From NCBI GenBank assembly GCA_038087875.1, contig CM075988.1:14634001-14698000 (forward strand): DNA of 64,000 bases, given 5' to 3'. The DNA comes from Malacoraja senta. Lineage: Eukaryota. Under the pieces are notes generated by a model. It did no database searches, was not told the origin of the DNA, and saw nothing but the letters and a program-made list of their open reading frames with translations. Positions 3,896-53,439 of this stretch are shown here, piece by piece. The translations under genes and the position numbers were made by a program. How positions within the stretch are numbered: the stretch's first letter is position 1; each line of letters starts with the position of its first letter.

Positions 3896-4812
3896 TTAAT
3901 ACTGGGGCTGGACATGGATGGATCATGTTTGACCTCTCCCCTAATATCCTTGCAGCCACATTAACCTTTTGAGGACAAATCAAGCTTCAAACCATGTATT
4001 TGTGTGCTACGAATCTCATCAAGGTCTCTCGTGGTAGTTCGTGCCTTCCTTCCAGACCATCTGGATGTCTTGTTTTAGTTTACCTCTGTCAAAGCTCTTA
4101 CCAATTCATTTTAAAATGCCTCTAGACCATAAATCATTTGTAAAAAGTTCTAAAGGGCTAAATTATCCAAGTATTAAATTAGATAATAAAGTTACCGGAA
4201 ACACATTTACATTGATTAAATACAAATTAATTGAGTGTAGTTAGTTACTGTAAGTTAATTAAAAGTGCAAAAAACAAAATTTAGACAGAATCCAAAACAC
4301 TTACCTATACGTAACTATTCAATTCAGGTCGGAGATTCTACTTAAATAAAAGGGGACGTCACTACATACACGTTAATCCCATTATCCTGTATCTGTACAC
4401 TGTGGACGGCTCAATTGTAATCATGTATAGTCTTTCCGTTGACTGGTTAGTACGCAACAAAAGTTTTTCACTGTACCTCGATACATGTGACAGTAAACTA
4501 AACTAAACTACACTACACCAGTTATCTTACAACAAGCCTCCAAATCCCATGAAATGTTGTCATCATATATCTATTAATATTCTCTTACTGTAACTTTTAC
4601 CAAATTTGACTCTTCCAGCATTTTACCATTTTCCTTTCTAACATCTGTGGTATTTTCTTGAGTGTTTCCTTTATTTCATTATACTGGATCTGGGCATCAC
4701 CAGCCTGTATTGTCCATCCCTAATTGCTCTGGAGAAGATGAGACATCTTTCTGAACCCTTGCAATCCATCTGGATGAAGGCATTTGGACACAGGAGAGAG
4801 TTAGATTTAGTA

Positions 4813-4872
4813 TTACTTCGGAGTCACGCGAGTGACTACGTGAAGAAGACCCGTCAGGGCGCCTGCGCGTCA
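4813..4872 (+). repeat. DIRS copy A left ITR
   Basis: cgtgaagaagacccgtcagggcgcctgcgcgtca is the reverse complement of 10196-10229 (one mismatch); the outer part is complementary to the ICR start. Confidence 0.92.
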
Positions 4873-5023
4873 TTACGTCAGACGCATTGGCACGAACGGA
4901 CGTGAGGAGCAGCGCGAATGGACGTGGTCTAGTGGAAATGTAGTTACAAGGTAAGTAAAAACGTTTTCAATAGTTTCCGGGTCCGTTTGCTGTGGGTCTG
5001 TGGGGATTTTTTCCACAGGCGCC

Positions 5024-6280
5024 ATGGAAAAAACGGACAAGTGGAAGAGGCGAGCGGCAAAGCCGGTGGAAAGTCGCGAGATTGCGGTCGGCGAACAGCT
5101 GCCTCAGACCCCTGTACAGTCGCCGGGTGGGAGCGTAGCGACTGTGGACTTGGGTCTTAAAAAAACACAGTCAGCGCCAGTGGGGCGCAAGGCTAAATTC
5201 AAGTCCGTCAAGCCCACGGAGGAGGAGTCCGATCAGGAGGATTCGACTCCAGGGCTGGATACTGCTTTTTGAGCGGATTTCTCAGATGGAAAGCCTGTTA
5301 CACAGATTACTGGAGAAAAGCACACTCAGGGAAGATTGTAGTCAAAGCCAGCCTCCAGAAGCCAGGTCAGCAGCACCTAGCAAAGGGCTGTTTGAGAGCA
5401 CCCTCATTGATGAGGCGCGTGCACAGGGTCAGCAGAGTTTTCCGATACAAGCGAAGATGGCAGCTGCCAGATGTTCTAGTTCTGGCAGTATGATTCGCTG
5501 CTCTGTGAGAGTTCTGACCCTGAGTCTGATGGTGAGGCCGATACAAGCGAAGACGGCAGCTGCCAGATGTTTTACTCCTGGCAGTACGATTCGCTGCCCC
5601 GTCAGAGTCAGGAGAGCCACTGGGAAAGGAAGTGGCCTCTACGATCAACTATTGTGTCTTCCATCAGCTCCAGTAGCTTACGATGGATGAAAATGCCAAA
5701 AAAGCACGAGACCCCAAGGAACTACGTATTGCTGAAAGTACTAGCAGTGAACCAAGATATAAGGGGTCAGATGGGCGAGGGCATGTGAGCCTAAGAAAAG
5801 TAAACTGCAGAGAATATTGAAGCTGCTGGGTTGAGGAACAACTGCAATTTTGCAAGAACAATGGATGGAGGCCAGGGATGGAGATGCATCGTGGCACTAG
5901 GGTTTCTATGTAGCGCCCACTTCGAGATGAATTGTTTCAGGAAGTATGCCATTCGGCCCACCATCAACCCCAAGTTGCAGCAACTCTGTAAAGCCCAGCA
6001 ATGTGCAGTCATTCAACTTACTCTTCAGAGAAAAAACCTCACGAAACATGGGAAAGAGTTGGATGATGAGAAAAAACAGCAAGGTTGATCAAAACATCAA
6101 TGGTCGGCAAGTCTGTGAAGAGGAGGTATCCTTTCAGACATCATACAAAATCCTGGGCCTACAACAGGAACAAGTCGACCATTGAAGCAGGGGCGCAGTT
6201 GGTGTCCTGCAGCGGGAACACGAAAAAGCGTGGGTTTTTCCTGCCAGGAGCCAGGGACCACAGGTCACTCAGGTGACAAA
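5024..6280 (+). pseudogene. DIRS copy A ORF1 (gag-like), broken
   Basis: Starts at GCCATGG (ATG 5024). ALGFLCSAHFEMNCFRKYAIRPTINPKLQQLCK aligns with copy B ALALMCSAHFEINCIHKNAIRPNIHPKYAGLCK; many frameshifts. Confidence 0.8.
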
Positions 6281-8150
6281 CGAGGTAGGTGGACCTGGTT
6301 CTCATGGGAACATATTAAGGCAAAAACAGCCAAATATTGGAAGCAAATTACTTCAGATTTATTATTCTGAGTATTATTCAAAGGTTTCGAATTGATTCGA
6401 TCCAAATAGTGATTTGCCATCCAGCATGTTCCTAGCAGAACACTCCAATTTCACAAAAATAAGTGATGGAGGTTCAAGCTGAATTTGAAAACTTGTCTAT
6501 AAACAAGTAATTGAAAGGTTGGTTTATCAAAACCACCAAATTGTGTTTAAATTTTCTCGACCTAAAAGGTGAGGAGTATTTTAGATCTGACAAGTCTTTA
6601 AAATTTTGTGAAGTATAGACACTTCAAAATGGAGACTTTGAGACTGCCAAACAACTTGTTGCAAAAGATGTTATATGGCACCTATAGATCTGAAAGATGT
6701 ATATTACTTATTGTCTGTTCATTTGTAAGATACAAATATTTGAAATTTATCTGAATGAACAATTATGGCAATTCAAAGTTCTGTCTAATGGGTTAACTTC
6801 AGTTCCTAGAATTTCACTAAATTGGTAAAACCAATTTTTGGGGCTAATTAGAGTCCAAGGACAGATCTTGATGGCGTAACTGGATGATGTCCGAATTAGG
6901 ACAAACAAGAGAATTAGTGAGTTATCTCTCTCAATTGTTCAATCCACTTTTGAAAGTTTTGGGTTTAATTCATCCAGAGAGAAATTAAGGTTAACGCCAC
7001 TTACAACAATTGATTATTTTAATTTCACAATTGATTCAATTAACAGGGTAGTAATTTTACCCAGTGTAAAGGGTGGAGCTGATTGATGGTTGCATTAAGC
7101 TGTTGAAAAAGCAACAATCTTCAATTAAGACAAGTGGCCAGCTTGCTAGGAAAATTAGTGTTATTTCCAGCAATACAATATGGGCCATTGCTACCAGCAG
7201 CTACAGACGGCAAAAAGAAAAGGCACTAAGATGCATGGTGGCCATTTTTGATAGGCCATGCAGTTAAACAACAAATGCTGCTTCTGATTTGCAGTGGTGG
7301 ATTTAACATGTCTCCAGTAGTTCAAGCAAGATACTGATTGAATAGCCTTCCATGGTCTTACAGACTGATGTCAGTGCACTAGGATTGGTGCCACTGAAAA
7401 GGTATCCATCTGTGGACAGATGGAATATGGAAGAGGCATTATGTTTGCAGACATGGAGAATCGACGTTTTACAGCTATTGGAAGGCTTATGAGCTCCAAG
7501 CTTGTTGTTAATACAACTAATCTGCATGTTCAGCTTCAAATTAACAATACTACAGCATTAATTATTAATACTACAGTATTAATTGTATGGGTGGAATTAA
7601 GTTGGTGTCATGTGACAAATTGGCTAATCAAATCTGGACTTGGTGTGTTGACAAATATTTGGTTTCAGCTATTTATCTACCAGGTAGATTCAATATAGTA
7701 GCAGACACCAGGTTATGGGAATTTCCATGATAACAAAAGAATGGATGTTGAACCTTAAGATTTTAATGATATAGTAGTCAGATTTGGGAAGCCAGATACG
7801 GCTTGTTTCCATCCAGACTCAATCACCAGTTACAGAGATATGTGTTATGGGAACTACATCGGGAGACAGTAGTGATTGATGTTTCTCGCTACATTAGGGT
7901 GGTATGTTTTTATATGCATTTTCCATCATTCTGTCTCATAAACCGGTGTCTGCTTAAAATGAAGCAGGATGCTGCCTCTGAGGTACTGGTGGTACCGGAC
8001 TGGTCTACGCAGCCATGGTTCCCTTTGATATTGGAATTAATGACACAGTTTCTGATAAAGGTTCCCAAAAGAAGGGATTTACTGGTGTATCCGATAATTG
8101 GAGAGTAATATCCGTTATATGCCTGTATGGATCTGTTAATTTGCAGGATT
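6281..8150 (+). pseudogene. DIRS copy A RT / RNase H / methyltransferase-like region, broken
   Basis: Fragments such as WKQITSD, HFKMET, QFKVLSNGLTSVPRIFTKL, *LDD and FCLINRCLLKMKQDAASEVLVVPDWSTQPWFP match copy B; numerous stops and indels. Confidence 0.85.
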
Positions 8151-8165
8151 TTAAAAGAGGATTGT

Positions 8166-8646
8166 AATCAATCTCCTGCCAACCATAGCCATATGTTTTG
8201 GTCTTGCCCTAAGCTAGCAGCCTTTTGGAGGAGTGCTTTCGAATTGATAAGCAGAGCTTACGACCAGACTATTCCTCCAAACCCAATGTCAACCATTTTC
8301 GGTACCCCTCCCAACACCAACCTCTCTGTTGCGGTGAAACGTGTCCTAGCTTTTACAACCTTGTTAGCCCGGAGACTGATCTTGCTTAACTGGAGGCTTA
8401 CCTGTCCCCTGACACACGCCCGTTGGATTAAGGAGGTGCTCTACAATTTGAAACTTGAAAAAATTAGGTTCTCTCTCAAAGGCTCTACCAAGACATTCCT
8501 AGATACATGGAACCCTTTCTTTGAACTGGTTAACTCTCTTAACTTGTCCCCGGACTCGGAAGAGGACTGAGTGTTCTCCACCATTGCTTTGTTCTACAGC
8601 AGCTGCTTTCCCCTTAATCCCCCCCTCCCCACAATTATTTATTTCA

Positions 8647-8678
<32 letters not shown>

Positions 8679-8937
8679 TATTTTTATTTATTTTTATTTT
8701 TTATATAGCACATTTTGTTTTGTTTATTTTACCATTTGTGTGTGGATGTGTACGTATGTGAGTGTTGTTTGTCCCCGTTTGGTTCCGAACTGACATGGGT
8801 GGGTTGAAGGTGGGTAAGGGTAAGGGTTTTGAGGATCGCTTACATACTGTTGTACAATTATGCCTTGACTGTCACTGTCTGTTATTATAGTATGTATGCA
8901 AATTGCTGTGAAATTCAAATAAAAAGATTTAAATTTA
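8166..8937 (+). mobile_element. 5'-truncated L1-clade LINE (ORF2 C-terminus plus 3' UTR) inserted in DIRS copy A
   Basis: Open frame to 8570 with HMFWSCPKL..FW, ARRLILLNW and LKLEKIRF...TWNPF. AATAAA at 8918-8923, A-rich tail, 13-bp TSD aaaagaggattgt (8153-8165, 8938-8950) at a TT/AAAA site. Confidence 0.88.
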
Positions 8938-8950
8938 AAAAGAGGATTGT

Positions 8951-9917
8951 CTGGGCATACTGTGGACATGCTTACAGCAGTCTGGCGGAAGAGCACTCAA
9001 AAGCAGTACATTTGCGAATCTGAGGTTGTGACTCTGTAAATGCTACTTTCCCATTATGTAAAGAATGGGGAAAATTTTCTGTGTACAAAAGAATATGGAA
9101 TGTTGTACGGCACATGTCTCAAATGTCTTAAGTTTTCTCAACACTCTATTTGAGGAGTTGAGTTATAGTGTGATTTATTCAGCCAGAAGTACATTGTCCT
9201 TGTTTTTTTATTTGGGGTCGGAAAGACATCCTGTTGAGTCTCGTTCTTTCATTTCCAGATTAATGAAAGGAATTTTAAGTCCAGATCTTCTAAACCTAGG
9301 TATGGCAATCTGTAATATAGAGTGGTTTTAAGCTACTTCATCAATGGACTCTTGGTACGATTCTGATTTGGCCAAAATCAGCAGGAAGGTAGTCATGCTT
9401 ATGGCACTTGTAACAAGCACAGAGAGTGCAGACATTACAAAAGTTACAGATACACAGGATGGAAGTACCTCAGGATTATGTTATGTTTTACATTTTATGA
9501 CCTACTCAAATGAAGTAGGGTCAGGTGTGACAGGATTCAAGAGTGTTTTATTAGCATATTCAATGGATCCATGTCTATGTGTTAAGACATATTTGTTGTA
9601 ATACATTGAGGCTACAAAGGTCTTATGAAATATGAAAACAAGATTGTTTATCATTCACGAAAAACCATACAAGATAGTGTCAGTTCAGACTATTTCAAGA
9701 TGGTTAAAACAAGTCTTGGTTGCTGCAGGTGTGAACAGTGATGTTTTTACATCCCATTCGATTTAGCAGCAACATTGGCAGCCAGGTCGAAGGACGTCCC
9801 GTCGACCATATTTTCGCAGCCGCCAGGTGATCTAATAAGTTGGTGTTTCAACACTTTTACCATCGGCCTATTGCCAATACGGAACTGTTTGCAGATACTA
9901 TATTAAGTTCTGCTTAA
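8951..9917 (+). pseudogene. DIRS copy A tyrosine recombinase, broken
   Basis: VLSFLNTLFEELSYSVIYSARSTLS, FISRLMKGI, KVVMLMALV, DPCLCVKTY and VQTISRWLKQVL are collinear with the copy B YR. Confidence 0.85.
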
Positions 9918-9971
9918 AATCCCCTGGGGCCGGGATTTGTATCTGCGGCATGAAATCACAAAGTTTTAAAA

Positions 9972-10073
9972 TCTTCACGTAGTCACTCACGTGACTCCGA
10001 AGTAAAATAGTAAGATTAAACGAGAACTTACCAGTTTGAAGTTTGATCTTTATTTTATGTTGGTGATTACGTG
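9972..10073. repeat. DIRS copy A internal complementary region (ICR)
   Basis: The first part is complementary to the element 5' end and the second part to the 3' end (54 nt identical), joined at gaagtaaaatagtaag. Confidence 0.92.
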
Positions 10074-10195
10074 CCCACCACGGCCCAACCCTCTTTCATA
10101 AAGGTCAGATGGAAGTTCTAAATTTACTCGTTTTACTATGTTACTATATTACTTCGTTCTTGTTGTTTGTGATTTCACACCGCTGCTTTGAAGAT

Positions 10196-10303
10196 TGACG
10201 CGCAGGCGCCCTGACGGGCCTTCTTCACGTAATCACCAACGTAACTCCTCATAAAATAAAGATCAAACTTCAAACTGGTAAGTTCTCGTTTAATCTTACT
10301 ATT
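10196..10303. repeat. DIRS copy A right ITR with extension
   Basis: tgacgcgcaggcgccctgacggg...cataaaataaagatcaaacttcaaactggtaagttctcgtttaatcttactatt. Confidence 0.92.
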
Positions 10304-10448
10304 CTTAGGGCTAAAGGAATCGAGGGATATGGGAAAAAAACAGGTACGGGGTACTAATTTTAGATGATCAGCCATGATCATATTGAATAATTCGAAGGGC
10401 TGAATGGCCTCCTCTGCACCTATTTATCTATGTTTCTATGTTCCTATG
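10304..10448 (+). mobile_element. CR1 3' tail, distal part (proximal part at about 4791-4812, split by DIRS copy A)
   Basis: gagagagttagatttag on the left flank joins cttagggctaaaggaatcgagggatatggg on the right flank, matching CR1 tails at 49441 and 60171; ends in ctatgtttctatg. Confidence 0.8.
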
Positions 10449-10818
10449 AAGGTCAGATTTGAAGTAAAATAATTGAACTGATCTATTTAACTTTGGAGGT
10501 ATAGTGATACAGCATGGCAACAGGCCCTTCGACCAAGACCATCAAGGCTGACTAAGATACCCATCTACACTGGTCCCATTTGCCAGCATTTGACCCCTAT
10601 CCTGCTAAACCTATTCCTCTTCATGTACCTGTCCAAATGTCTGTTAAACATTCTAATTGTACCTACCTCAACCACTTCATCTGCAGTCAACTTCTTTCAT
10701 TTTGATATGTAAACAATTTCCTGAAAATTAGATATATTCCCAGTTTGTTAATGTCATGAAAAATTATTAAAGCTCAGAACACCATAATGGGGAAATCTTT
10801 AGATAAACAATAAACATT

Positions 10819-10928
10819 AATAGTAAGAATAAACGAGTACTTACCAGTTTGAAGTTTGATCTTTATTTTATGAGGAGTTACGTTGAGGGATTACGTGAAG
10901 TAGACCCCGTCCAGCCGCACACGCGACA
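10819..10928. repeat. DIRS copy B right ITR with extension
   Basis: gaccccgtccagccgcacacgcg is the reverse complement of cgcgtgtgcggctggacggggtc at 15846-15868; the outer part is complementary to 11043-11121. Confidence 0.93.
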
Positions 10929-11042
10929 ATCTTCAAAGCAGCGGAGTGAAAATCACAAACGACAATTACTGAAGTATGATAGTAAGATGCATAAAGACTA
11001 GAACTACCAGCTCGATCCTTTTATGAGGGTGGGAGCGGAGGG

Positions 11043-11155
11043 CACGTAATCCCTCAACGTAACTCCTCATAAAATAAAGATCAAACTTCAAACTGGTAAG
11101 TTCTCATTTAATCTTACTATTTTACTTCGGAGTCACGTGAGTGACTACGTGAAGA
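11043..11155. repeat. DIRS copy B ICR
   Basis: Contains the end-to-end junction cttactattttacttcggagtcacgtgagtgactacgtgaag, complementary to both termini. Confidence 0.93.
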
Positions 11156-11310
11156 TTTCAAAGCTCTGTGTTTTCACACCGTGGATTAAATCCAGGTGCT
11201 CACTGCACTAATTGACTCTATTTGAGTAAGCACAATCAACAATGCATAACCACAACATTAAATGTAATCAGTTAATGGTTTTATTTATTTTAACAAAAGT
11301 AACCCATTTA

Positions 11311-12302
11311 TCATAATGGGGGATTTAATACTGAATCCAGCACGGCATCACCAAACACCCCGGGATCTTTAATCTCCTTATGGTAATACTTGTGAAACAT
11401 CTGTTCACTTGCCCATCCTGCGGCCGCGAGGATAAGGTCTATTGGAACGTCTGAATCCCTGGCCGCCGATGTTGATGCCGCCCTGGTGGAATGAGATTTA
11501 AATTTATCAGTATCAATACCTGAATAAATCAACACCTGTTTCAACCATCTTGAAATTATCTGTGTTGCCACTTTCTTATGAGGACTTTTATGACTAATAA
11601 AAAATGCTAATTCTGTGCCTCTTAAGATTCTGGTTGTTTCCATGTAACATCTTATATATGTTGCTACACATAGCCGTGGATCCGTAGGATATGCTGAAAA
11701 CTCCAACTTACATCACGTGAACCCAGGTCTACTTTGTTTCAGCAAATCATAGACATAGAATGTAACAGCATTCGCCCCTACTTTCATTCTGTCAATTCTT
11801 AATTTCTGTAATGTTTGAACTCTCTGAGCTGAAACTAATGCCATGAGCATAACCAACTTCATGGTGATTTTGGCTAATGACAGTTTCAATAGGATTCCAT
11901 TCCCTCAGCAGCATCAGTACATATTTTACATTCCAGATTTCTGTATACCTAGGTCTAGGAGGATTGGAGTTGAAAATTCCCTTCATAAACCTACAGACCC
12001 AAGGATGTGATCCTATTGGATTTTGTTCTGATTCACTGCTTAAATATGCAGAGAGTGCACCGTGCAGTATTGATTGCACTATAACTTAATTTTAATTTGT
12101 AGTAAAGAGTTGAAAGAAACTCTAATACATCTGAAATTTCAGCTGTGTTATATGCAATATTCTTTTCTGAACAAAACACCTCCCATTTCTTTATATAAGA
12201 AATGTACTGCTTCTGGGTACTATTCCTCCAGGCTGCTACCATAACATCCACCGTACGGTCTAATAATCCTCTTCCAAGATATGGCCTTTTCAGAATCTGC
12301 AA
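11311..12302 (-). pseudogene. DIRS copy B tyrosine recombinase (frameshifted)
   Basis: ORF pieces 12033-12302, 11792-12079 and 11311-11706. Catalytic-type residues are visible: SAQRVQ (R), LLKQSRPG (K), SHSTRAAS (HxxR), AAGW, FHKYY. Confidence 0.93.
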
Positions 12303-12660
12303 ATCAACAAACCAATACGATCATGTAAAGGATGTGGTTCATTAGTTACAGGGTTTACAAGCAGTTTCACCTGCTTTGGAATCACCATAAGGGGTTCTTT
12401 GATTATGTTTAACACCAGTGGGTACCATAGCTGTGTAGGCCAATCTGGCACCACCAAAATCCTCGAGGCTGAGTCCTGTTTAATTTTCTGTATGCATCGA
12501 TTGATTAAACAAAATGGAGGAAATGCGTACAGAAACATATCACCCCAATGTAGCGAGAAAGCATCCACCGCTACTGCACCAGGATCAGGTTCCCATGACA
12601 CTTAGGCAATTGGTGGTTAAGTCTTGATGCAAACAAATCAATCTCTGGCATTCCAAATTG
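12290..12660 (-). pseudogene. DIRS copy B DNA N6-adenine methyltransferase-like domain (one frameshift near 12600)
   Basis: PEIDLFASRLNHQL ... SWEPDPGAVAVDAFSLHW ... LYAFPPF ... LVVPDWPTQLWYP, the MT-like motifs that follow RNase H in DIRS elements. Confidence 0.85.
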
Positions 12661-14170
12661 TGTTACAATTTGCTTAAATATTTCCTGATGCAACATCCAT
12701 TCTGTATTATTATTAAATTTACGTGATCTTTTGTCTGCAATTATGTTAAATTTTCCTGGTAAATATATTGCTGACAGACAGATTTTCCTGGCAATACACC
12801 AGGTCCAAATTTCATTTGCCAATTTATCACATGATTCTGACTTGATACCACCCATGTGATTTATGTATGCTACAGCTGTAGTATTGTCAACCTGTACCTG
12901 AACATGCACATTTTCCATATTAGTGCAATAAGCTTTAAGGCCATAAAATGCTCCTAACAGCTCTAGGTAATTTATCCCTTGATTTTCAAGCAAAGGTACT
13001 TCATCCACATTCCACCTACCTCCACAGCTGGAAATCATGTTAGTTGCGCCCCATCCAAGAGCACTTACATCAGTCTGTAGAATGACGGAAGGTGTTTCTA
13101 CCAAAACTTTTCTGGAAGCATTAGAGACATTGTTAATCCACCATTCTATTTCTGTAATGGGTCCAATTGTCAATTGCATGGGCCTGTCAAAATGCCCTGT
13201 ATTCATTTTTAATGCTTGTACCTTAGCCCTCTGCAAACATTGATAATGCAATGGTCCAAATCTTACAGCTGTAAAAGCAGCAATTAATTTGCCCAGCAAG
13301 CTTGCCACATGTCTAATTGAAGACTTATCCTCGTTTATGAGCTTAGTGCAACCTTCAATTAACTGCAGCCTTTTGTCTTTTGGCAAGGTGATTACCATGT
13401 GTTCAGAGTTAATTGTGAACCCCAGGTAATCAATCTTCTTGCTTGGTAACAATTTTGATTTTTGTAGGTGAATAATGAAACCCATTTTTATAAAAATGTA
13501 CGACTCTAGATACTGACAACATTGCGGTAGCCAAAGTGTCCCCCACAATCAGAATATCATCTAAATAAGCCATTAATACATGGCCCTCAGCTCTTAGCAG
13601 AGCTAAAATTGGTTTGAGTAATTTTGTGAATAATCTTGGTGCTGAAGTCAGACCATTGGGCAATGCTTTAAATTGCCATAACTGACTCATCCATCTAAAT
13701 TTCAAATATTTTTGATCATTACCATGCTTTGCCACAGAATAATATGCATCTTGCAGATCTATGCTTGCCATGTAGCAATTACTTGTGACCAGCTGAATGG
13801 CATTAGTAAATGTTTCCATTTTGAAATGTTTATATTGTACATAAAGGTTAAGACTTGTCAGATCCAGAATGATTCTACATCAACCATCCTTTTTTGTTCT
13901 AGGAAAAATATTTGACACAAACTGATGGTGTTGTTCTACTGACTTTTCTATTACCCCTTTTTCGCATAAAATTTTCAATTCTCCCTCGATCAGCTTATTC
14001 TCTTCCTTTGAGAAAATCCATGACCGGTTTGAATTATGCTGAATAGGAGGATCCATATGTGGATAGAACTCAATTTTGAATCCCACAATGCTGCACAGTA
14101 TAAATGAATCATTTGTTATTAATTGCCATTCTTTTAGGAAGAATCGTAACCTTCCCCCAATTTGTGAGTG
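12661..14170 (-). pseudogene. DIRS copy B reverse transcriptase and RNase H
   Basis: IGGRLRFFLKEW, YMASIDLQDAYYSV, LPNGLTSAPRLFTK, YLDD, LQTDVSALGWG, INYLELLG, QVDNTTAVAYINHMGG, LPGKFNIIADKRSR. In-frame TGA at 13880-13882 and a frameshift near 13505. Confidence 0.95.
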
Positions 14171-15682
14171 TGAAACATTTGTTGTGTTTCTTACCAGACC
14201 AGGCCCCCCTACCTCGGGGTTTGCCACCGGCAAATGTTGTCCCCTTCTAGTAGGCACGTTGTAACCTCCACGTATCCCCGGTGCAGCACGCCAACATGTA
14301 TATGAGAATGATCGGCTTGTTCCTTCTCCAGCACCAGCATTCCGCACCACTCTGCTCAGCACAGGTGGTTTCATCATCATACCACTCATGGTCTTTGACT
14401 CTTCATTTAAGTCCTTTAGCTTCTTTGCTAGATTTTCTCCAAAAAACAGATTAGGCATTTGTATATTGGATGGTTTGCAGAGCCCTGCATACTTAGGATG
14501 AATATTTGGTCTTATTGCATTTTTATGAATACAGTTTATTTCAAAGTGCGCACTACACATGAGTGCTAAGGCATCTTGTTGTGAATCTGATATAAAATCC
14601 AACCCCCTGGCAAACGCCATAATGCCTGACCCCAGCAATTTCAGCACTCGTTGTAATTTAAATTCTTGTGAGCGTAATCCAATGCTCAAATAACCCCACA
14701 TCAAGTTATTCACCGCTGGAACTGCTCGCAATTCACAATTTGCCGGGGTCTCATACTTTTTAATAGTCTCATCCACAGTTAATTCCTGGAGCTGATGGGA
14801 GAGCAGATAATTTATAGTCATTGCTATTTCCTCTCTCAAAGGTTCCCCTGTTACTCTGGGAACAGCAAACTTTTGTGTCAGCCCTGGAACTTTGAGCTCT
14901 GATAATGGGCTCTGGTCCTCATATAAATCATCATCTGAATCTAGATGTTCATCTTCATGATGGGAAATTTCTAGCTCCCCTGTTTCAGGTAAGTCTCTGC
15001 CAGATTCCCCCTGCGCGGGCTCTCTTGTAGGCCCACGGATAGGCAACCCTGTTTCAGGTGCTGCTGGCGCTGGCTCAATTCTAGGCCAACGCTTCATTTG
15101 TTTTTCTTTTGACATTGTCGGTGCTGGCACATTTTTCATCCCACGTTTCTACTGCCTTTGTTCAGGCATTTCTAGTACTGGCTCTCCGGTAGACCAACAC
15201 ATATATTGCCTTTTTGCGGGCATTTCGGGCACTGGCTCTCCTGTAGGCCAACCACTGTAATGTTTCTGCACAGGCATTCCTGATGGCTCTCCTGTAGGCC
15301 ACCCTTGTGCCTGTCCCATCCAAGGCACCCCCAGTGCTATATCCTCGATAGGCCAACACGGACTGAAATCCTCCTGTGGGGGTTCTTTATAAATCATTTT
15401 CCCCATCAGAAGTTCCAAACTCGCGACCCTCGCAGCCATTATATTTTCTGCCTGAGGAGGGTATATCTCCGGGTCTGACTCATCGGAGTCTACAGGTCGG
15501 GCCGACTTTTGTCCTGCCTTGCGCCCCGCCGCCGGCGGTATAACGGCACTATCGACCGCAACGGGAGTTAATGGCCTCGCTGCCACTGACTCCTCTAACT
15601 GACGCCCGCTACCCTCAGGATCTTGGGTTGTACCTGCGGTGCGTCCCTGGCTGCCTCTCCTTCCCCTATGCCCTTTCTCCAT
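14171..15682 (-). pseudogene. DIRS copy B ORF1 (gag-like)
   Basis: ORFs 15149-15682 and 13880-15139 share a frame, separated by one TAG. Contains YETPANCELRAVPAVNNLMW and LFFGENLAKKLKDL; the gag assignment is by position. Confidence 0.8.
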
Positions 15683-15842
15683 AATAAACTTGCGTGGAGC
15701 TCCACCAACAGGTCTGACGAGAAAAAAGCGCTCCTGGAAGTGAAAGTGAAAGCACTTACCTTCCGACTTTTTGCTTTACTCACCGCTTGGAGGAGCTCCT
15801 GCTCCTCCACACACGGTCATGAACGCTATGCGTCTGACGATA

Positions 15843-15906
15843 TGACGCGTGTGCGGCTGGACGGGGTCTTCTTCACGTAGTCCCCTCACGTGACTCCGAA
15901 GTAAAA
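15843..15906. repeat. DIRS copy B left ITR
   Basis: tgacgcgtgtgcggctggacggggtcttcttcacgtagtcccctcacgtgactccgaagtaaaa. Confidence 0.93.
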
Positions 15907-17484
15907 TTAATACATTTCCCTCCACTAAATCCCATGGAAAGTAATCCCTGTGGAGCACCACAATCTCATATCGATGACCCAGAGTGAGGTAACACGATAA
16001 TTTTAGGCTCCCATTTTGAATGCCATGAATATGTTTTGAAAAACATCCTTGACCACAGTTTGGGAATTTCTGCTTTCCTGTGGAAATAACTAACATTACT
16101 TAGCATGGAACTATCGTTCTTTGCAATCATAGTAATACAGCCATATTGTTGGGCGATAACATTCCTAGAGAATCGTCTGTATCATGATTTTCTAAAATGT
16201 GAAGCCAGGTCATCTGCACGTGCATCAAAAAACACAAGCCGGAACAAGATTATTTTGGGCAGATTAATTTTTTTTCCCCACACAAATTCCAACAGAGTGA
16301 ATTTTATTCTATATATCAAAATGATTTGTAAACACAGCAAGCGCAAACATATTTGAAAAGCACTAACATCTTTATTAACAAAAGGCAAATAAATGAATGC
16401 CTTTTTAAAAAACTGAATATAACAAATTGTAAGTAACAACTTTGGAAAGGATAATTCGACTGATTGCGCTTATTTCCAAACGCCAGTTTAAAGAGATTTG
16501 AAATAACGTGATCAATTGTGTTTGGGGTATTTTAACAATTATGTAGTTCACATTTAAATTAAATGGTTTAACAGAATATTAATAACTGCAAAATGTACCC
16601 AATAATGGCAGTTGAATTATCGATAAACCTTTACGTGAAATCTAATTCATGAAAGAGTGTGATTACTTTTTGACAGGTTCCAAGTTCAATAGAACAATTA
16701 TCGTTTGTCTAAGTTTTCATCTGCTGCGGTGTATGGCTGGAGTTCTTCACAAAGTGAAAGAAATTCAATGCAAAATAATGAACTGTAATTTAAAAAGAGA
16801 GCTTCAGTTGCAACACAAGATAATAAGGGTTTCCAAGCACTGCCAGTGATTGATGTTGGTCAATTCCGCTGAATTTTAATTATCCATTTGTATGTTGATC
16901 ACTTTAAAAATACACCACATTATCTTACACCTCAGTTCCCTCCTATCACCGAGTTGATATAGTATTGATGAAGGAAATTCTGAAAATTATCATGAAGAAG
17001 ACTGGTTTGTAATCTGTTTAACCCAAGGGCTTACATAGTGGGAAAACATGATGGGAAAAGAGGCCAACTTATGTTCGGAGAGGCAATAAATAGATTCATC
17101 ATGGTATTTAGGTTCCATAGCAAAGTTAAAATAAAGATTGGGGGGTGTAAATTAAGCTGAGGGCAATAAATCTGATCAGGGAGTAGTGACTTTTATTGTG
17201 CCCATTTGTCAGATGAACAGGAGGTGGTTTTGTAAATAGCAGGGAGCATAAGAACATAAGAAAGACAAAGATCTTTGCAGAGATATTGATCAATGATGAA
17301 TTATTTCAAAAATATAGAATCCACATGTAATCTTTGTGACATAACAATATAAAATGCAGTGGGTATTGTGAATCATCTAAATACTCGATTCATAAACACC
17401 AGATTCAGGGTACAGGCTAAATACTACATTCCCTCCTACAGTATATAACATGCTAAAATCATATAGCAGTCAATTTGTGTGCAA

Positions 17485-18109: not shown

Positions 18110-18932
18110 AAATGTGAGGTTATCCACTTTGGTAGCAAAAACAGGAAGGCAGATTACTATCTAAATGGCGTCAAGTTGGGAAAAGGGGAAGTACAACGAG
18201 ATCTGGGGGGTCCTTGTACATCAGTCTATGAAAGTAAGCATGCAGGCAGTGAAGAAAGCGAATGGCATGTTGGCCTTTATAACAAGAGGAATCAAATATA
18301 GCCTTTATAACAAGAGGAATCAAATATAGGAGCAAAGAGGTCCTTCTGCAGTTGTACAGAGCCCTAGTGAGGCCACACCTGGAGTATTGTGTGCAGTTTT
18401 GGTCCCCTAATTTGAGGAAGGACATTCGTGCTATTGAGGGAGTGCAGCGTAGGTTTACAAGGTCAATTCCCGGGATGGCGGGACTGTCATATGCTAAGAG
18501 AATGGAGCAGCTGGGCTTGTACACTCTGGAGTTTAGAAGGATGAGAGGGTATCTCATTGAAACATATAAGATTGTTAAGGGCTTGGACACGCTAGAGGCA
18601 GGAAACATGTTCCCGATGTTGGGGGAGTCCAGAACCAGGGGCCACAGTTTAAGAATAAGGAGTAAGCCATTTAGAACGGAGACGAGGAAACACTTTTTCT
18701 CACAGAGAATGGTGAGCCTATGGAATTCTCTGCCTCAGAGGGCAGTGGAGGCAGGTTCTCTGGATGCTTTCAAGAGAGAGCTAGATAGGGCTCTTAAAAA
18801 TAGCGGTCAGGGGATATGGGGAGAAGGCAGGAACGGGGTACTGATTGGGGATGATCAGCCATGATCACATTGAAAGGCGGTGCTGGCTCGAAGGGCCAAA
18901 TGGCCTACTCCTGCACCTATTGTCTATTGTCT
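18110..18932 (+). mobile_element. CR1/HER1-like LINE, RT C-terminus plus 3' UTR
   Basis: KCEVIHFG, LYRALVRPHLEYCVQFWSP, RTRGHSLRI, FFSQRMVSLWNSLP; tail ctattgtctattgtct. Internal 28-bp tandem duplication at about 18273-18328. Confidence 0.92.
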
Positions 18933-26405: not shown

Positions 26406-27696
26406 GTCTTATTTGTAGTCCTCACATCTGTAAAATCTCCATTCAAAAACTTAGCTCATGATCCTGAAACAGGATCTATGAGCACATTCCACAATTTAAG
26501 TGCTGGGGAACTCCAGCATATTTCTGCTGTCAGTGGCCTCGACCTTGCTCATTGCAATGGAACACATACTAAGGAGAGAATCAATTGACAAGTTGGAGAC
26601 ATCTTTGTTCAAGTATACATTCAAAGTCCTGAAGCAAAACACAAAGTGCTGGAGTAACTCAGCGGGTCAGGCAGCATCTCTGGAGAAAAAAGATGGGTGA
26701 CGTTTCGGGTCAGGATCATTCCTCAGTCCTGAACTTGCTCTTCATTACACAAGCAAACATTAGCTGAGCGTAGTGGAACTGCTGGCAAGATTCAGGCTGT
26801 ACACTTTCCAATTTGGAAGAGAATCGCAGTACATTGAGTTAATGAGAATGAGAACTCACAATCTATTGGAGAATGAGGCACAAATTTGGGGTCATTACAC
26901 TTCATTTATGAGAATATATATTGGCCTTGGAACACTACAATATGCACTCACTGAAATTCTATCAGACTTCCAGCACTTATGTAACATAAACTTGGCTTAT
27001 GGCCCTTTAAGTCTGGCAGTTTGAGAAGAAATCTTGTTGAGGTGCTTTTATACTGATAGTGAGATCGATTGGGAAGAGAAACTACTTCGGCTGATTAGTG
27101 CATGTTAACGAGATGTATCACAAAATTAAATCAAGAGTATTTACAAAGCACTTTTCCACCAAGATTCAGTGGAAATCTGGAACTCTCTACCAGCGGTCAA
27201 TTGAAATTAATAAGATGGATCAATGGATCTTTATTCAGATTGGGTTGTTTGGGATATAGTCAATGCCAAGAACAATTAACAATTAACTGAATATTAAAAT
27301 GGGTTACATCAATATAGCAGGGCTGCCAACTCTCACGCTTTCAGCGTGAGAATCACGCCTTGGAGCAAATTCTCACGCCCTCACGCTCATGACCGAGTTC
27401 TCACGCTGAGTTCAGTCCCTGCACAGTTTGTCCCTTTGCGCCACGTGCCAGGGATCTGCACGGTCTGGCGAAGCGCGTCGGTTGCCGGCTGTGAGTGACG
27501 TCGCGTCTCTTCTCTCTTGGTTGGATGTGCAGCCGCCGGGTGTCAGCAGCTCTATGTGCCGGCTGTGAGCGCTGCGCTGCCGGCCGCCGCTGCAGCCTCG
27601 CTCCCTCCCTCCCTCCTGCCCTTCAACTCACACGGCAGCGCCAGCGCCGCCAATCCACGCTGCACCATGCCCGCCAGACTCCCCATTGGGCGGCCG

Positions 27697-27713
27697 GGGA
27701 GAGAGAGGGAGGG

Positions 27714-27757
<44 letters not shown>

Positions 27758-28320
27758 AAGAAAGAAAGGGAGGGATGGAGGCAAAGAGAGACAAGGGGAG
27801 GGAATGTAGAAAGGGGATGAAGGGGGGGGGAAGGAGAAGGAGGGAGGGTGAGGAAAGAGAGGGAGGGGGAGGAAAGAGGGAATGATGGGGGCAGGAGGGA
27901 GGAAGGGGTGGATGGAGGGAGGGGGAAGAAAAGGTGTGTGTGTGTGTGCTTGTGTGTCTGTCTCCCTGTGTGTGTCTCCTTGTGTGTGTGTGTCTCCGTG
28001 TGTGTGTGTCTCCCTGTGTGTGGGTTTCTCCCTGTGTGTGTGTGTCTCCCTGTGTGTGTGTGTCTCCCTGTGTGTGTGTGCGTGTATGTGTGTCTCCCTG
28101 TGTGTGTGTCTCCCTGTGTGTGTGTCTCCCCGTGTTTGTTGTTTGTCTCCCTGTGTGTGTGCGTGTCTGCGTGTCTGTGTGTCTCCCTGTGTGTGTGTCT
28201 CCCTGTGTGTATGTGTGTCTCTGTGTGTGTGTGTGTGTGTGTCTCCCCGTGTGTGTGTCTGTCTGTCTGTGTGTGTGTGTGTGTCTTCCTTTGTGTATGT
28301 GTCTCCCTGTGTGTCTGTTG
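27697..28320. repeat. (GA)n and purine tract followed by a complex (TG)n/ctccc microsatellite
   Basis: Directly visible; explains the low-complexity ORFs in the track. Confidence 0.95.
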
Positions 28321-28649
28321 TCACATCCTGGCCTTAGACAGGGCTGCCAACTCTCACGCTTTGAGCATGAGAGTCACGCATTTCAGCCAATGCTCACGCT
28401 GATGACAGAATTCTCACGCTGTCTTCAGTCCCTACACAGTTTGTCTCTTTTGCGCCACATCACAGCGATTAGTGCAGTCTGGGGAAGCGCGTCAGTTGGC
28501 GGCTGTGAGTGACGTCGCATTTCTTCTCTTCTCTTCTTTCTTGGTTGGATGTGCAGCTGCCGACAACATGAAGCAGCCGGAGATAGAACTAATCAGGTGA
28601 ATTGGTTGTAAAACGTGGGGGTGACCACAATGAGGCCAAGCATCTAGGA

Positions 28650-30861: not shown

Positions 30862-32425
30862 ATGGAGTCATAGAGTGATACAGTGTGGAAACAGGCCCTT
30901 CGGTCCAACTCGCCCACACCGGTCAACAATCTCTCAGCTACACTAGTCCCACTTACCTGCGCTTGGTCCATATCCCTCCAAACCTGTCCAATCCATGTAA
31001 CTGTCTGTTTCTTAAATGATGGGATAGTCCCAGCCTCAACTACCTCCTCTGGCAGCTTGTTTCATACACCCACCACCCTTTGTGAGAAAAAGTTACCCTG
31101 GTAAATCTTTTCCCCTTCACCTTGAACCTTTGTCCTCTGGTCCTCGATTCCCCTACTCTGGGCAAGAGACACTGTGCATCTACCCGATCTATTCCTCTCA
31201 TGATTTTGTACACCTCTATAAGATCACCCCTCATGCTCCTGCGCTCCAAGGAATAGAGACCCAGCCTACTCAACCTCTCCCTATAGCTCACACCCTCTAG
31301 TCCTGGCAACATCTTCGTAAATCTTTTCTGAACCCTTTCAAGCTTGACAATATCTTTCCTATAACATGGTGCCCAGAACTGAACACAATATTCTAAATGC
31401 GGTCTAACCAAAGTCTTATACACCTGCAACATGACCTCCCAACTTCTATACTCAATACTCTGACTGATGCCAAAATAATTTTTGACCACCTTATCAACCT
31501 GTGACTTGACCTTCATGGAACCATGCACCTGTACTCCTAGATCCCTCTGCTCTACAACACTACCCAGAGGCCTACCAATTATTGTGTAAGTCCTGCCCTT
31601 GTTAGACATCCCAAACTGCAACAACCTCACATTTCTCTGTATTAAATTCTATCAACCATTCCTCCGCTCACCTGGCCAATTGATCCAGATCCTGCTACAA
31701 TATTTTATAACTATTTTCACTATCTGCAGAATCACTCACTTTTGTATCATCAGCAAACTTGCTAATCTTGCCCTGTATGTTCTCATCCGAATCATTGATG
31801 TAGATGACGAACAGTAACGGGCCCAGCACTGAACCCTGAGGCACACCACTAGTCACAGGCCTCTGGTCCGAGAAGCAACCTTCCACCATCACCCTCTGCT
31901 TCCCTCCATGGAGCCAATTTGCCATCCATTCAGCTATCTCTCCTTGGATCCCATGCGATCTAACCTTCTAGAGCAGCCTACCATGCGGAACTTTGTTGAA
32001 TGCCTTACTGAAATCCATGTACACAACATCTACAGCTCTGCCCTCATCGACCTTTTTGTTCACGTCTTCCAAAAAAATCAATCAGATTTGTGAGACACGA
32101 CCTCCCACATACAAAACCATGCTGACTATCTCTAATTAGCCCTTGCCCATCCAAATGCCTGTATAGTCTATCCCTCAGAATACTCTCCAGTAACTTTCCA
32201 ACTACAGATGTTAAGCTCACTGGCCTATAGTTCCCAGCATTTTCCCTATAGCCCTTCTTGAAAAGAGGCACAACATTTGCCACCCTCCAGTCTTCCGTTA
32301 CCTCTCCTGTATTTAAGGACGACTTATGAATTTCAACCAGGGCTTACGCAATTTCCTCTCTAGTTTTCCCCAATGTCCTCGGATATATCTGATCAGGCCC
32401 TGGAGATTTGTCTACCTTCATACAC
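30862..32425 (-). mobile_element. CR1/HER1-like LINE, about 1.5-kb 3' portion
   Basis: ANVVPLFKKG, NYRPVSLTSVVGKLLE, SQHGF, VTSGVPQGSVLGPLLFVIYIND, SKFADDTK, LVRPHLEYCVQFW; tail (ctatgact)n. Confidence 0.95.
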
Positions 32426-51555: not shown

Positions 51556-51865
51556 TAAGGATGTGAATGTGAGGGAAAGGTATACATTTTACATGTGCAA
51601 ATCTTTGTTTCACGTATTGCATAAAATTGAATTTTGGAGTGATGAATAGTTAATAGCTGTGAATGAATTCTATTTTCAACAGTGTAAACATAATTGTTGC
51701 AGGTATGATATCCTCACTTCTGAAAAGGTCATTCTGCATGGTCATTCTTGGGTACATTGCTTCTTCACATATACTGTACGCATTCTAATGATTTGTACAT
51801 TATCACATGCAAATATTCTCTTTTGTGTTGCCCACATGTGCTCACTAGCACAGTAGTAGTTCATC

Positions 51866-52228
51866 TGTGTGCGTGCGTGTGTGTGTGTGTGTATGTGTGC
51901 GCCCGTGTGTGTGTGTGCCCGTGTGTGTGTGTGTGTGTGCCCATGTGTGTGTGTGTGTGTGTGTATGTGTGTGTGTGTGTGTGTGTGTGCCCGTGTGTGT
52001 GTGTGTGTGTGCCCATGTGTGTGTGTGTGTGTGTGTATGTGTGTGTGTGTGTGTGTGTGCTCATGTGTGTGTGTGTATGCCCATGTGTGTGTGTGACCGT
52101 GTGTGTGTGTGCCAGTGTGTGTGTGTGTGTGTGTGTGCCCGTGTGTGTGTGTGCCTGTGTGTGTTCGCACGCGTGTGTGTGTGTGTGTATGTGCGTGTGT
52201 GTGTATGTGTGTGTATGTATGTGCGTGC

Positions 52229-52263
<35 letters not shown>

Positions 52264-52382
52264 TGTGCGTGTGTGTGGGTGTGTGTGTGTGTGTGTGTGC
52301 ATGTGTGTGTGTGCGTGTGTGTGTGTGAGTGCGCATGAGTGTGTGCGTGTGTGTGCGCGTGTGTATGTGCGTGTGTGTGTGC

Positions 52383-52425
<43 letters not shown>

Positions 52426-52489
52426 TGTGTATGTGTGCGCATGTGTATGTGTGTGTGTGCGTGTGTATGTGCGTGTGTATGTGCGTGTG
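51866..52489. repeat. Complex (TG)n microsatellite, about 620 bp
   Basis: Directly visible. Confidence 0.97.
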
Positions 52490-53439
52490 GTGAGGTTGTC
52501 AGGAGATGATATAATGCCTATGCTATATTATACACTGCAGTCATTTTGAAGGTTAGCTGAAGGTACTGGAATCTAACCAATGATATTAATGGTATTGATG
52601 CATAGCTTGACACCAGGTTCTGATGAACAATTGTTAATGATTTGCTGTTCCTCCTATACATCAGTGTTTTGCTGGCATCGGTTGTATCAAAGTCAATGCA
52701 ATGATACCTCCGGCAAATCTTTAGCTGGGTTCAGAGAGAAGAATTTGGCAGTGGGGAAAAAAGAAAGTTCCTTTACTGCTCCAAATCAATGCTCACTTTA
52801 TGAGTGAGCAACGTGGGGCTAAATGCACTGGCTGGCAGATTGGGAAGAATTTTCACTCTGACCTTGCACAGTGACGTCAGCTGGAAGGATGTAAAGAAGG
52901 CAGGTTATATTTATCAGCTTACAGTGGTGATTTGGATGTTAGCACAGGCACTTTGGAACCCAGCAGCACAATTCAACAGCATCAGGGCACTCTAACTGCA
53001 CCACCTGAAGGGATCATTAACTATTTACTGGTTGATTCCTGTATCCATGACAACAAGTGCATGGTGCTTCAACTTACAGTGAGGGGTACGGCAGGATATT
53101 TCAGACTTTAGGACCTTTCACTTGCTGTGACGGATATTAAGCGGACAGGACAAAGAACGAGACAAGCCCCATGGAGAAAGAGGTGGGAGAATGGAGAACA
53201 GAAGGAGCCATGTTCAGCCTGAATGGCATGCAAATCACCTGCTTTCACTGCCATTTGCCACTCACATATTCACTGCCATAACTTTACACTTGATCTGGAA
53301 CAAAGGCCACACGTGGGTAGAATTCTGTTGTTGGATGGGGATAAGAGATACAGTGCACCATCCACTGCTTGGAATTTTGAAGAGGTCATGGGTGAGAGAA
53401 AGGCCAAATGTCAGATGAAGAAAGATAGAGCGGTCAAGA

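Follow-up and report, generated by a model that had tools for sequence, protein, structure and literature searches.

Two DIRS1-like retrotransposons lie tail-to-tail in the 64-kb window (the whole stretch of DNA that was analysed), element A at positions 4810-10303 on the forward strand and element B at 10819-15907 on the reverse strand, boundaries that include the terminal trinucleotides. We consider it reasonably probable that these are elements of different subfamilies which inserted independently, came to lie close together by chance, and of which A was mobilised when it was already largely dead. The gap between them is exactly 515 bp (10304-10818). An earlier note on this DNA had described the two-copy tail-to-tail layout, and its coordinates and order of parts were borne out, as was the assignment to DIRS, which the end anatomy, the internal complementary region (ICR) and the homology of the coding regions all support. 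The copies had also been called full-length; this holds for the layout, which is complete in both, but not for intactness, as coding regions are broken in both and the open gag, pol and tyrosine recombinase (YR) frames of an autonomous DIRS copy are absent from A and from B. The proposal of distinct subfamilies and not a duplication agrees with our alignments, in which the identity of A to B is only 54-74% in the coding body and falls to 44-48%, too low to align, over the 5′ half of ORF1. An inverted duplication was rejected on the same identity.

The left terminus of A (4810-4875) comprises the 3-bp core position, a part complementary to the ICR (4813-4846) and a subfamily-specific conserved inverted terminal repeat (ITR). 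Its right ITR and right extension (10196-10303) close with a terminal ATT, the left end carries a variant triplet, and the ITRs pair 4820-4872 with 10196-10248. In B the left terminus and left ITR, with an initial ATT, occupy 15828-15907, the right extension and right ITR, with a terminal ATT, occupy 10819-10935, and the ITRs pair 15835-15910 with 10862-10935. The ICRs (9972-10073 on the forward strand in A, 11043-11155 on the reverse strand in B) are complementary to both termini of their element, with halves that overlap at the 3-bp junction; the right half in A lacks 10 bp that its right end has. In both elements a right extension of ~45-48 bp is complementary to the ICR only. The terminal repeats are inverted within each element, and the split direct repeats that characterise PAT and Ngaro elements were not found in either. 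Ends of the NTT type and integration without target-site duplication are seen in B, which has ATT at both ends and an empty site, and in A, where the length fits the LINE target; an apparent 4-bp target duplication at A was rejected because the LINE target length fits a 3-bp core.

Four copies of the right-end core, alternating in orientation as had been claimed, lie at 10006-10059 (A ICR), 10237-10303 (A right end), 10819-10885 (B right end) and 11055-11121 (B ICR), with 96-100% identity among them, and the outer ends form the inverted pair that the earlier note had recognised (4807-4887 with 15828-15910, 83% identity). Since two copies of the core lie close to the 3′ end of each DIRS, any tail-to-tail pair with common ends shows four, and the fourfold core is no independent surprise.

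The coding region of B is lightly decayed. Its YR (11311-12296, reverse strand) matches PF00589 (E 3.9e-7) and PF13495 (E 1.8e-4), has a visible HSTR motif and carries one stop and two frameshifts. The pol region (12290-14215, reverse strand) contains a reverse transcriptase (RT) matching PF00078 (E 4.9e-16), with one stop and 2-3 frameshifts against 12 reference proteins. ORF1, in the gag position (14190-15682, reverse strand), has one in-frame stop and repeats of 54-bp period at 15017-15304; it gave a weak lead in Atlas (0.77), and its C-terminal half is 47% identical between A and B; in both it is, by position, a putative gag-like ORF. No family was recovered in a Pfam scan of the ORF1, RNase H and methyltransferase frames of B. 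RNase H followed by methyltransferase was assigned downstream of the RT through end-to-end alignment of A and B with relatives having those domains; among five scanned relative proteins RT_RNaseH was detected in one and Dam, always below the curated cut-off, in four.

The coding region of A is, by comparison, heavily decayed. ORF1 (5024-6300, forward strand) is broken and holds an internal repeat of 96-bp spacing at 5442-5608, the RT-RNase H-methyltransferase pol (6282-8150) contains 7-12 stops and 18-29 frameshifts against the 12 reference proteins, and the broken YR frame (8935-9925), which as in B lies downstream of pol on the same strand, has 5 stops and 9 frameshifts against one reference. 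Read through its frameshifts, the RT of A is 42-47% identical to intact relatives, and its YR is 41% identical to that of a relative; a Pfam scan of A in three frames returned no family.

A feature absent from the earlier note is a 5′-truncated, 772-bp L1-type LINE fragment inside A (8166-8937, forward strand), with an open C-terminal frame to 8570 and an A-rich tail. It interrupts A at the pol/YR boundary, at a TTTT/AAAA target site, and has a 13-bp duplication of that target on its two sides (8153-8165, 8938-8950). The ORF2 C-terminus, A-rich tail, target duplication and 5′ truncation are traits of the L1 clade; the best PDB match is human L1 ORF2p residues 1141-1251 (E 0.008), and there is a zf-RVT lead, with no Pfam family in any of the four L1 and CR1 fragments scanned. 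Contigs of the A family without the insert were found (joint 8132-8937), and the fragment would have entered A after A's own insertion.

Judged from anatomy and best hits only, A and B resemble the DIRS1-like elements LgDIRS1, LgDIRS3, AcaDIRS1 and NveDIRS6b of molluscs and cnidarians given in Table 3 of Piednoel et al. 2011 (PMC3266345). Going by that table, the likeness extends to ATT ends with an AAT circular junction, a short conserved ITR (31-32 bp in A and B, 31-36 bp in the molluscan elements), a divergent ITR of ~34 bp with a right extension of ~45-48 bp, ICR halves of ~37 and 79-82 bp, and a length of ~4.7-5.1 kb without a long pol/YR overlap. In contrast, the teleost and Xenopus elements of the same source have conserved ITRs of 100-148 bp and long ORF overlaps. 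A and B differ from the elements tabulated there in that their host is a batoid fish and both copies are broken. The end anatomy of the batoid elements is of the mollusc/cnidarian and not of the teleost type; no description of batoid DIRS structure was found in the literature searched, a search with most subscription papers and Repbase entries outside its scope.

The insertion sites were compared with contigs of four sequencing runs (X23, X24, X1 and X3; 20 small-share runs were left out), of which X23 is possibly the source sample and so not independent. All four runs are contigs, so that depth is no true copy number, single-contig depths being floors and summed depths loose ceilings. A interrupts the 3′ tail of a CR1-group LINE, the left part of which lies at 4786-4809 on the forward strand; intact copies at 18811, 41659, 49471 and 60198 in the window continue through this point with matching length. 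The host spacer between the elements contains the rest of the LINE tail (to ~10447), a second interspersed repeat (~10500-10700) and AT-rich DNA, and is also found in the relatives. The earlier note had called for a search for empty alleles, and an empty B site was present in both relatives examined, where in each case a single contig runs from 10811 straight to 15905, the two points being separated by 6 letters. B inserted after the split from these two relatives. At A, the left-flank contigs stop at 4811 in both relatives, with 31 and 13 letters unplaced, and no contig joining the two flanks of A in the relatives was found among the matches listed. Depth over bin 4901-5367 of A is 1.06 and 0 in the relatives, against ~50 and ~30 for single-copy DNA, and at 88% likeness hardly anything of the A family is present in either. 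The flanks differ from the relatives by 4.3% and 4.8%, and an insertion of A younger than this 4-5% species split is strongly indicated by the comparison. As each element has its own 3-bp core, A splits the LINE tail, the B site is empty in the relatives and neither relative has A here, A and B are, on the sequence evidence, independent insertions. Each would have entered at a 3-bp NTT core through an exchange carried out by a tyrosine recombinase, at points 515 bp apart, and the insertion of A, like that of B, would follow the split of this ray/skate from the two sampled relatives. B would derive from a coding-competent family and have decayed by ~2% since.

These flanks also bear on whether the pair is an assembly artefact, or one 11-kb unit, composite or inverted duplication, that originated or was moved in one piece, a reading we regard as hardly credible. 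The region is repeat-rich, no spanning contig is among those listed, and the right junction of A is not among the listed pieces, an absence that carries no weight by itself. However, in a run that contains this sequence, contigs without a single difference cover three outer junctions out of four. Under a 31-letter rule the junctions at 4810 (33 letters) and 15907 (53 letters) are bridged and that at 10819 falls one short (30 letters); the listed X24 pieces cross no junction. In the relatives the spacer is joined to the outer flank of B, and so is host DNA that was present first; the 11-kb composite unit was rejected because the spacer predates both elements. The limited likeness of A to B speaks against a duplication, and the L1 frame inside A is clean, so that the frameshifts of A are not local assembly noise. 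Misassembly had been named beforehand as fatal to the original reading, and no sign of it was found in the contigs; nor was a clear rearranged allele of the locus seen among the 15 listed of 1,065 contig joints.

The decay of A is unevenly distributed. Of the near-invariant pol columns, 31 of 137 are changed in A (~11% of nucleotides, CI 7.6-16) versus 7 of 142 in B (2.2%; Fisher p 1.6e-5), the figure for A being inflated by misalignment next to frameshifts and by family-level differences. Seven stops of A that are present in at least 11 of 12 alignments suggest ~9% decay. Were all of the 5% divergence between species to fall on this lineage, the excess of stops would by itself be marginal (p 0.03-0.07). 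Between the paired end repeats there are, in contrast, 2 substitutions over 266 nt and a single 10-bp gap in A (0.75%), and 6 substitutions over 294 nt in B (2.0%). From a pol that is ~9-11% decayed, ends at ~1% and a site younger than the 4-5% split, we infer a late jump of A, probably made after its own genes had died and with the enzymes of another family. Cross-mobilisation through common ends, which the earlier note had suggested, thereby gains partial support, the body of A being far more decayed than its ends or the age of its site allow. Another copy, 7-8% different from A, spans A's frameshift near 6360 without a gap, so that at least one lesion of A is common to another copy. The indels near 6835, 7735 and 9493 differ from many family contigs, and the A family may overall be less broken than this copy.

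The ~9-11% decay of the body could also mean that A is an old insertion which decayed in place, had its ends refreshed by gene conversion and was then lost from the relatives. Four near-identical inverted cores within 1.2 kb would be able to pair, and the many lesions that set A apart from family contigs fit decay in place. However, equal freshness is seen in the left end and ITR of A, which lie 5 kb away from the other cores, and each ICR has retained letters diagnostic of the end of its own element, not of the neighbour's. Moreover, what the relatives nearly lack is the whole A family and not just this copy, and the flank ends cleanly at the A boundary in both, which makes an old insertion very unlikely. 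Local conversion between A and B was separately rejected, each ICR tracking its own terminus. For the late mobilisation that we favour, A would have been largely dead at its last move, its RNA keeping working ends, and this RNA would have been copied and integrated by proteins that came from an intact family having this core in common with A. DIRS-1 of Dictyostelium, as described in PMC7192593, likewise has an ICR complementary to both ends, and its proteins are able to act in trans, the route proposed for A.

Depth over the core-bearing bin 10972-11438 reaches 775k and 634k in the relatives, more than 100x that of their B-type pol bin (12840-13306), which shows that the core is common far beyond this pair, also in the relatives. 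It would represent a cis-acting signal retained across the whole DIRS clade in these fishes, and not one swapped between A and B.

The closeness and tail-to-tail orientation of the pair are most likely due to chance, the genome having hundreds to thousands of DIRS copies. Single contigs give floors of ~600 copies for the A family and ~490 for the B family, or half if flank depth is per haplotype. With copy number bracketed only, a random model predicts 0.03-5.9 tail-to-tail pairs within 520 bp (1,000-10,000 copies, 2.2-4.0 Gb); at the ~1,000-copy floor there is a 3-6% chance of one such pair per genome, and with at least 5,000 copies chance is enough. The insertion hotspot raised by the earlier note is not needed, since plausible copy numbers yield such a pair. 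We nevertheless weighed a recombinase on a resident DIRS end, or the chromatin there, that would attract an incoming circle, if its core is the same, to an NTT close by. The two insertions lie within one 520-bp interval and are both lineage-specific, the cores of A and B are near-identical, and the chance expectation at the copy-number floor is low; in fish and Dictyostelium, DIRS1 is reported to form hot spots and to insert into its own earlier copies (PMC5941688, PMC6387122, PMC7192593). Such homing is nonetheless unlikely: the elements adjoin and neither is nested in the other, apart from the core the target flanks show no likeness to the circle junction, ATT/AAT occurs ~50 times per kb, none of 37 tblastn hits revealed a third DIRS piece in the window outside the pair, and one pair out of a very large scan is a selected observation. 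As described in those sources, the notothenioid hot spots (PMC5941688, PMC6387122) likewise bring DIRS1 copies of a fish genome close together, but take the form of chromosome-scale centromeric FISH clusters, whereas A and B are one pair in LINE-rich DNA. Dictyostelium DIRS-1 copies cluster too, but nest in earlier copies within centromeric clusters (PMC7192593), whereas A and B are side by side, of different subfamilies and alone in the window.

It is extremely unlikely that the pair was retained because convergent read-through gives dsRNA that silences DIRS elements. Together the two 3′ ends make up an inverted repeat (390 bp, 81% identity), and DIRS-1 is reported to be under RNAi control in Dictyostelium (PMC7192593); the long stem predicted in silico, without a shuffle control at that length, restates the inverted repeat only. 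However, inverted repeats are already present in every single DIRS, and selection on the pair is not indicated, both copies being in decay. Inverted Alu pairs are likewise related elements in opposite orientation that form a spaced inverted repeat, and are described as depleted or unstable when close and alike (PMC3215922, PMC10164571). By analogy, much greater stability would be expected of the A/B repeat, with its 81% identity and 515-bp loop, unless the DNA is single-stranded over a long stretch.

The pair itself is of little weight, being two transposon fossils side by side. A broader model, in which batoid DIRS subfamilies keep one core, intact families mobilise dead copies and the recombinase steers insertions to within 1 kb of resident ends, appears quite unlikely as a whole; a genome-wide excess of close pairs, if true, would make target choice by the DIRS recombinase directly testable. 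Its hitch-hiking half, the mobilisation of dead full-length copies by intact families, is probable. A would seem to be a natural example of a full-length DIRS that was able to move even when fully decayed. Dating by coding decay may thus overstate the age of DIRS insertions several-fold, and the identity between ICR and terminus would be the better clock.

Repeat finding, self-BLAST and the raw sequence bear out the tail-to-tail DIRS pair with ITR/ICR layout described in the earlier note. Element A (4810-10303, forward strand) and element B (10819-15907, reverse strand), terminal triplets included, each run inverted terminal repeat (ITR), open reading frames, internal complementary region (ICR) and ITR, and a spacer of 515 bp lies between them. 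The observation is correct and both elements are of known type. The right-end core common to the two was located, as claimed, four times in alternating orientation (10006-10059, 10237-10303, 10819-10885 and 11055-11121; 96-100% alike); since it occurs twice per element by design, this is expected of any tail-to-tail pair with shared ends. ‘Full-length’ holds for the complete layout of both elements, but not for their coding frames, which are broken in both. Identity between A and B is 54-74% across the coding body, drops to 44-48% in the ORF1 5' half and reaches 79-96% over the last 380 bp. Both ORF1 5' halves carry short tandem repeats of their own (A 5442-5608, 96-bp spacing; B 15017-15304, 54-bp period).

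B matches RVT_1 (E 4.9e-16), Phage_integrase (E 3.9e-7) and Phage_int_SAM_4, and a profile scan of three frames gave no domain match in A. With the RT/RNase H frame of B as query, 469 proteins from 2,208 candidates matched at E 1e-20 or better; among the 120 matches listed the best are 56-59% identical, and the best named relative of B pol (RT-RNase H-methyltransferase) among those listed is a sea cucumber protein (50%). Five relatives of B pol were scanned, giving RVT_1 in 5/5, RT_RNaseH in 1/5 and Dam in 4/5 (below the curated cut-off), and both A and B could be aligned end to end with such relatives. The conserved ITRs are 31-32 bp, the right extension ~45-48 bp and the ICR halves ~37 and 79-82 bp, with ATT ends and no long overlap between pol and the tyrosine recombinase (YR). 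These end dimensions agree with the molluscan and cnidarian rows in Table 3 of PMC3266345, whereas they do not agree with its teleost and Xenopus rows. Going by end dimensions, the lack of pol/YR overlap and the sea cucumber relative, the elements at 4810-15907 resemble DIRS of an invertebrate-type clade, here in a ray host. A literature search that reached few subscription papers and not Repbase turned up neither close convergent DIRS pairs nor an account of DIRS anatomy in batoids.

A splits the 3' tail of a LINE whose further copies in the window are continuous through that point, and the LINE target length is consistent with exchange at a 3-bp core. B has ATT at each end; DIRS ends are described as NTT, mostly ATT, without target duplication (PMC3266345). 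Relatives were compared using contigs of four of the 24 runs listed, two from one organism that carries the insertions and one from each of two related organisms. The look for empty alleles proposed earlier found B's empty site in 2/2 relatives, where one contig each links 10811 to 15905 with 6 letters between and the spacer attached. The spacer is therefore old host DNA, and B inserted independently. Movement of the 11-kb unit as one is ruled out, as the spacer is present in relatives without B. For A, contigs of the left flank end at 4811 in both relatives (31 and 13 letters unplaced), and the body bin 4901-5367 has depths of 1.06 and 0 against ~50 and 30 for single-copy DNA; no contig linking A's two flanks in the relatives was among the rows shown. 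Independent insertion of A is strongly indicated. The earlier view that the pair is not a duplication stands, the coding bodies being only 54-74% alike. The flanks differ from those of the relatives at 111/2,558 (4.3%) and 137/2,867 (4.8%) letters. In one holder run (X23, possibly the source sample) zero-difference contigs cross junctions 4810, 10819 and 15907, that at 10819 by 30 letters, one below the 31-letter rule; junction 10303 was not among the 8 pieces shown. Misassembly of the locus is unlikely.

Two further LINE fragments with open C-terminal frames lie at 18283-18864 (forward) and 31040-31648 (reverse), both listed under the CR1 group, to which we take the first to belong. The three best named relatives of its frame are from stingray, devil ray and skate (73-79%), which marks the host as a batoid, and its bird and shark relatives are consistent with the CR1 group. 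CR1-group LINEs are described as abundant in elasmobranchs (PMC13343379). Long degenerate CA/GT microsatellite blocks (27550-28500 and 51720-52550) give spurious His/Thr and Cys/Val frames.

The proximity of A and B is probably due to chance. From single contigs, the copy floors are ~625 in the A family and 490 in the B family, or half as many should flank depth be per haplotype; loose ceilings from summed contig depths are 5,800, 8,300 and, for the core, 31,000. Batoid genomes are reported at 2.2-4.0 Gb with 2.5-3.7% Gypsy/DIRS1 (bioRxiv 10.64898/2026.10.27.761883). A uniform model predicts 0.03-0.06 tail-to-tail pairs within 520 bp at 1,000 copies, 0.8-1.5 at 5,000 and 3.3-5.9 at 10,000. By these figures the pair is unremarkable if copy numbers are mid-range and slightly unusual if they are at the floor, before considering that it was picked out of a large scan and that retroelements can be regionally co-enriched, as reported in zebrafish (PMC9341512). 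The insertion hotspot suggested earlier is therefore not needed to explain the pair. Local steering of DIRS insertion toward resident copies is a less likely possibility: DIRS1 hot spots, as well as insertion into copies already present, have been published (PMC5941688, PMC6387122, PMC7192593), but A and B are not nested, 3-bp insertion cores are plentiful (~50 per kb), target flanks beyond the core are unlike the junction, and all 37 tblastn hits of four DIRS proteins in the 64-kb window fall within the pair.

Relevant to the dsRNA and rearrangement ideas raised earlier, the tails of A and B form a 390-bp inverted repeat (81%) around a 515-bp loop. Inverted-repeat instability is reported to fall with distance and divergence, except in long single-stranded DNA (PMC10164571), and close inverted Alu pairs to be depleted (PMC3215922). 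Contigs of the four runs gave 1,065 joints, and none of the 15 that were listed is a clear rearranged allele of the locus.

Alignment with 12 reference proteins puts 7-12 stops and between 18 and 29 frameshifts in A pol, compared with 1 stop and 2-3 frameshifts in B pol; against one YR reference, A has 5 stops and 9 frameshifts and B 1 and 2. Seven of A's stops hold in at least 11/12 alignments. At 142 near-invariant pol columns from 59 relatives, A is changed at 31/137, or ~11% nucleotide decay (CI 7.6-16), an estimate somewhat raised by misalignment beside frameshifts, and B at 7/142 (2.2%); an estimate for A from stops, using 8 on which three alignments agree, is 9-11%. At its pol/YR boundary A carries a young, 5'-truncated L1-type passenger of 772 bp (8166-8937) with an open frame of 134 codons and an A-rich tail; its target duplication is exact, 13 bp long and at a TTTT/AAAA site, the L1 target motif. 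The best solved match of the frame is the human L1 ORF2p C-terminus (E 0.008; 14 sequences matched, E up to 10), and A-family contigs are without the insert (joint 8132-8937). This frame is clean, which at the lesion rate of A would happen by chance with a probability of 0.0025, so local assembly noise does not account for the lesions in A.

The ends of A are fresh. Paired end repeats of B differ by 6 substitutions in 294 nt (2.0%), in line with its body. A's pair is out of line with its body, showing 2 substitutions over 266 nt and a single 10-bp gap (0.75%, variant left triplet uncounted); at 5% decay, three or fewer changes would have p 0.0008. A's ICR core is also nearly identical to B's. 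At 10059-10060 the ICR lacks 10 bp found in A's right terminus, so the loss probably postdates A's most recent jump. As A's site is younger than the 4-5% split, most of its decay is older than its arrival, and A is apparently a decayed copy that hitch-hiked. On the simplest mechanism, a dead copy with working ends would be transcribed, and its RNA reverse-transcribed and integrated by proteins of an intact family carrying the same core, with selection at each hop limited to the cis signals. A lesion near 6360 is apparently common to A and another copy 7-8% away (two contig records, no gaps). Many A-family contigs differ from A at its lesions near 6835, 7735 and 9493, and the family as a whole may therefore be less broken. 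Family contigs differ from B at its RT stop, so the stop is private to B and B-type elements are a plausible helper; DIRS-1 proteins are reported to act in trans (PMC7192593).

Each ICR still matches the end of its own element at the diagnostic letters, which is evidence against conversion between A and B. B's left end (15870-15890) and ICR (11122-11155) show two adjacent differences, where the left end resembles B's right ITR and the ICR reads like A's left end; this is possibly the footprint of a template switch rebuilding the left end. Going by the DIRS model, the core may serve as recombinase and end-repair signal, and the ICR is reported as essential in Dictyostelium (PMC7192593). In the relatives' runs (X1, X3; 4901-15641) A-type and B-type bodies are rare at 88% likeness and the terminal core is very abundant. 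In the four runs, bin 10972-11438, which holds B's ICR, reaches summed depths of 743k, 159k, 775k and 634k (the last two in the relatives), against 7.2k and 1.4k for the relatives' B-type pol bin (12840-13306), so the core is clade-wide and sits on many elements besides the A and B types, also in species without A and B at this locus. Expansion of the A and B subfamilies seems confined to the species of the window, and further elements that share these ends must be present in the relatives.
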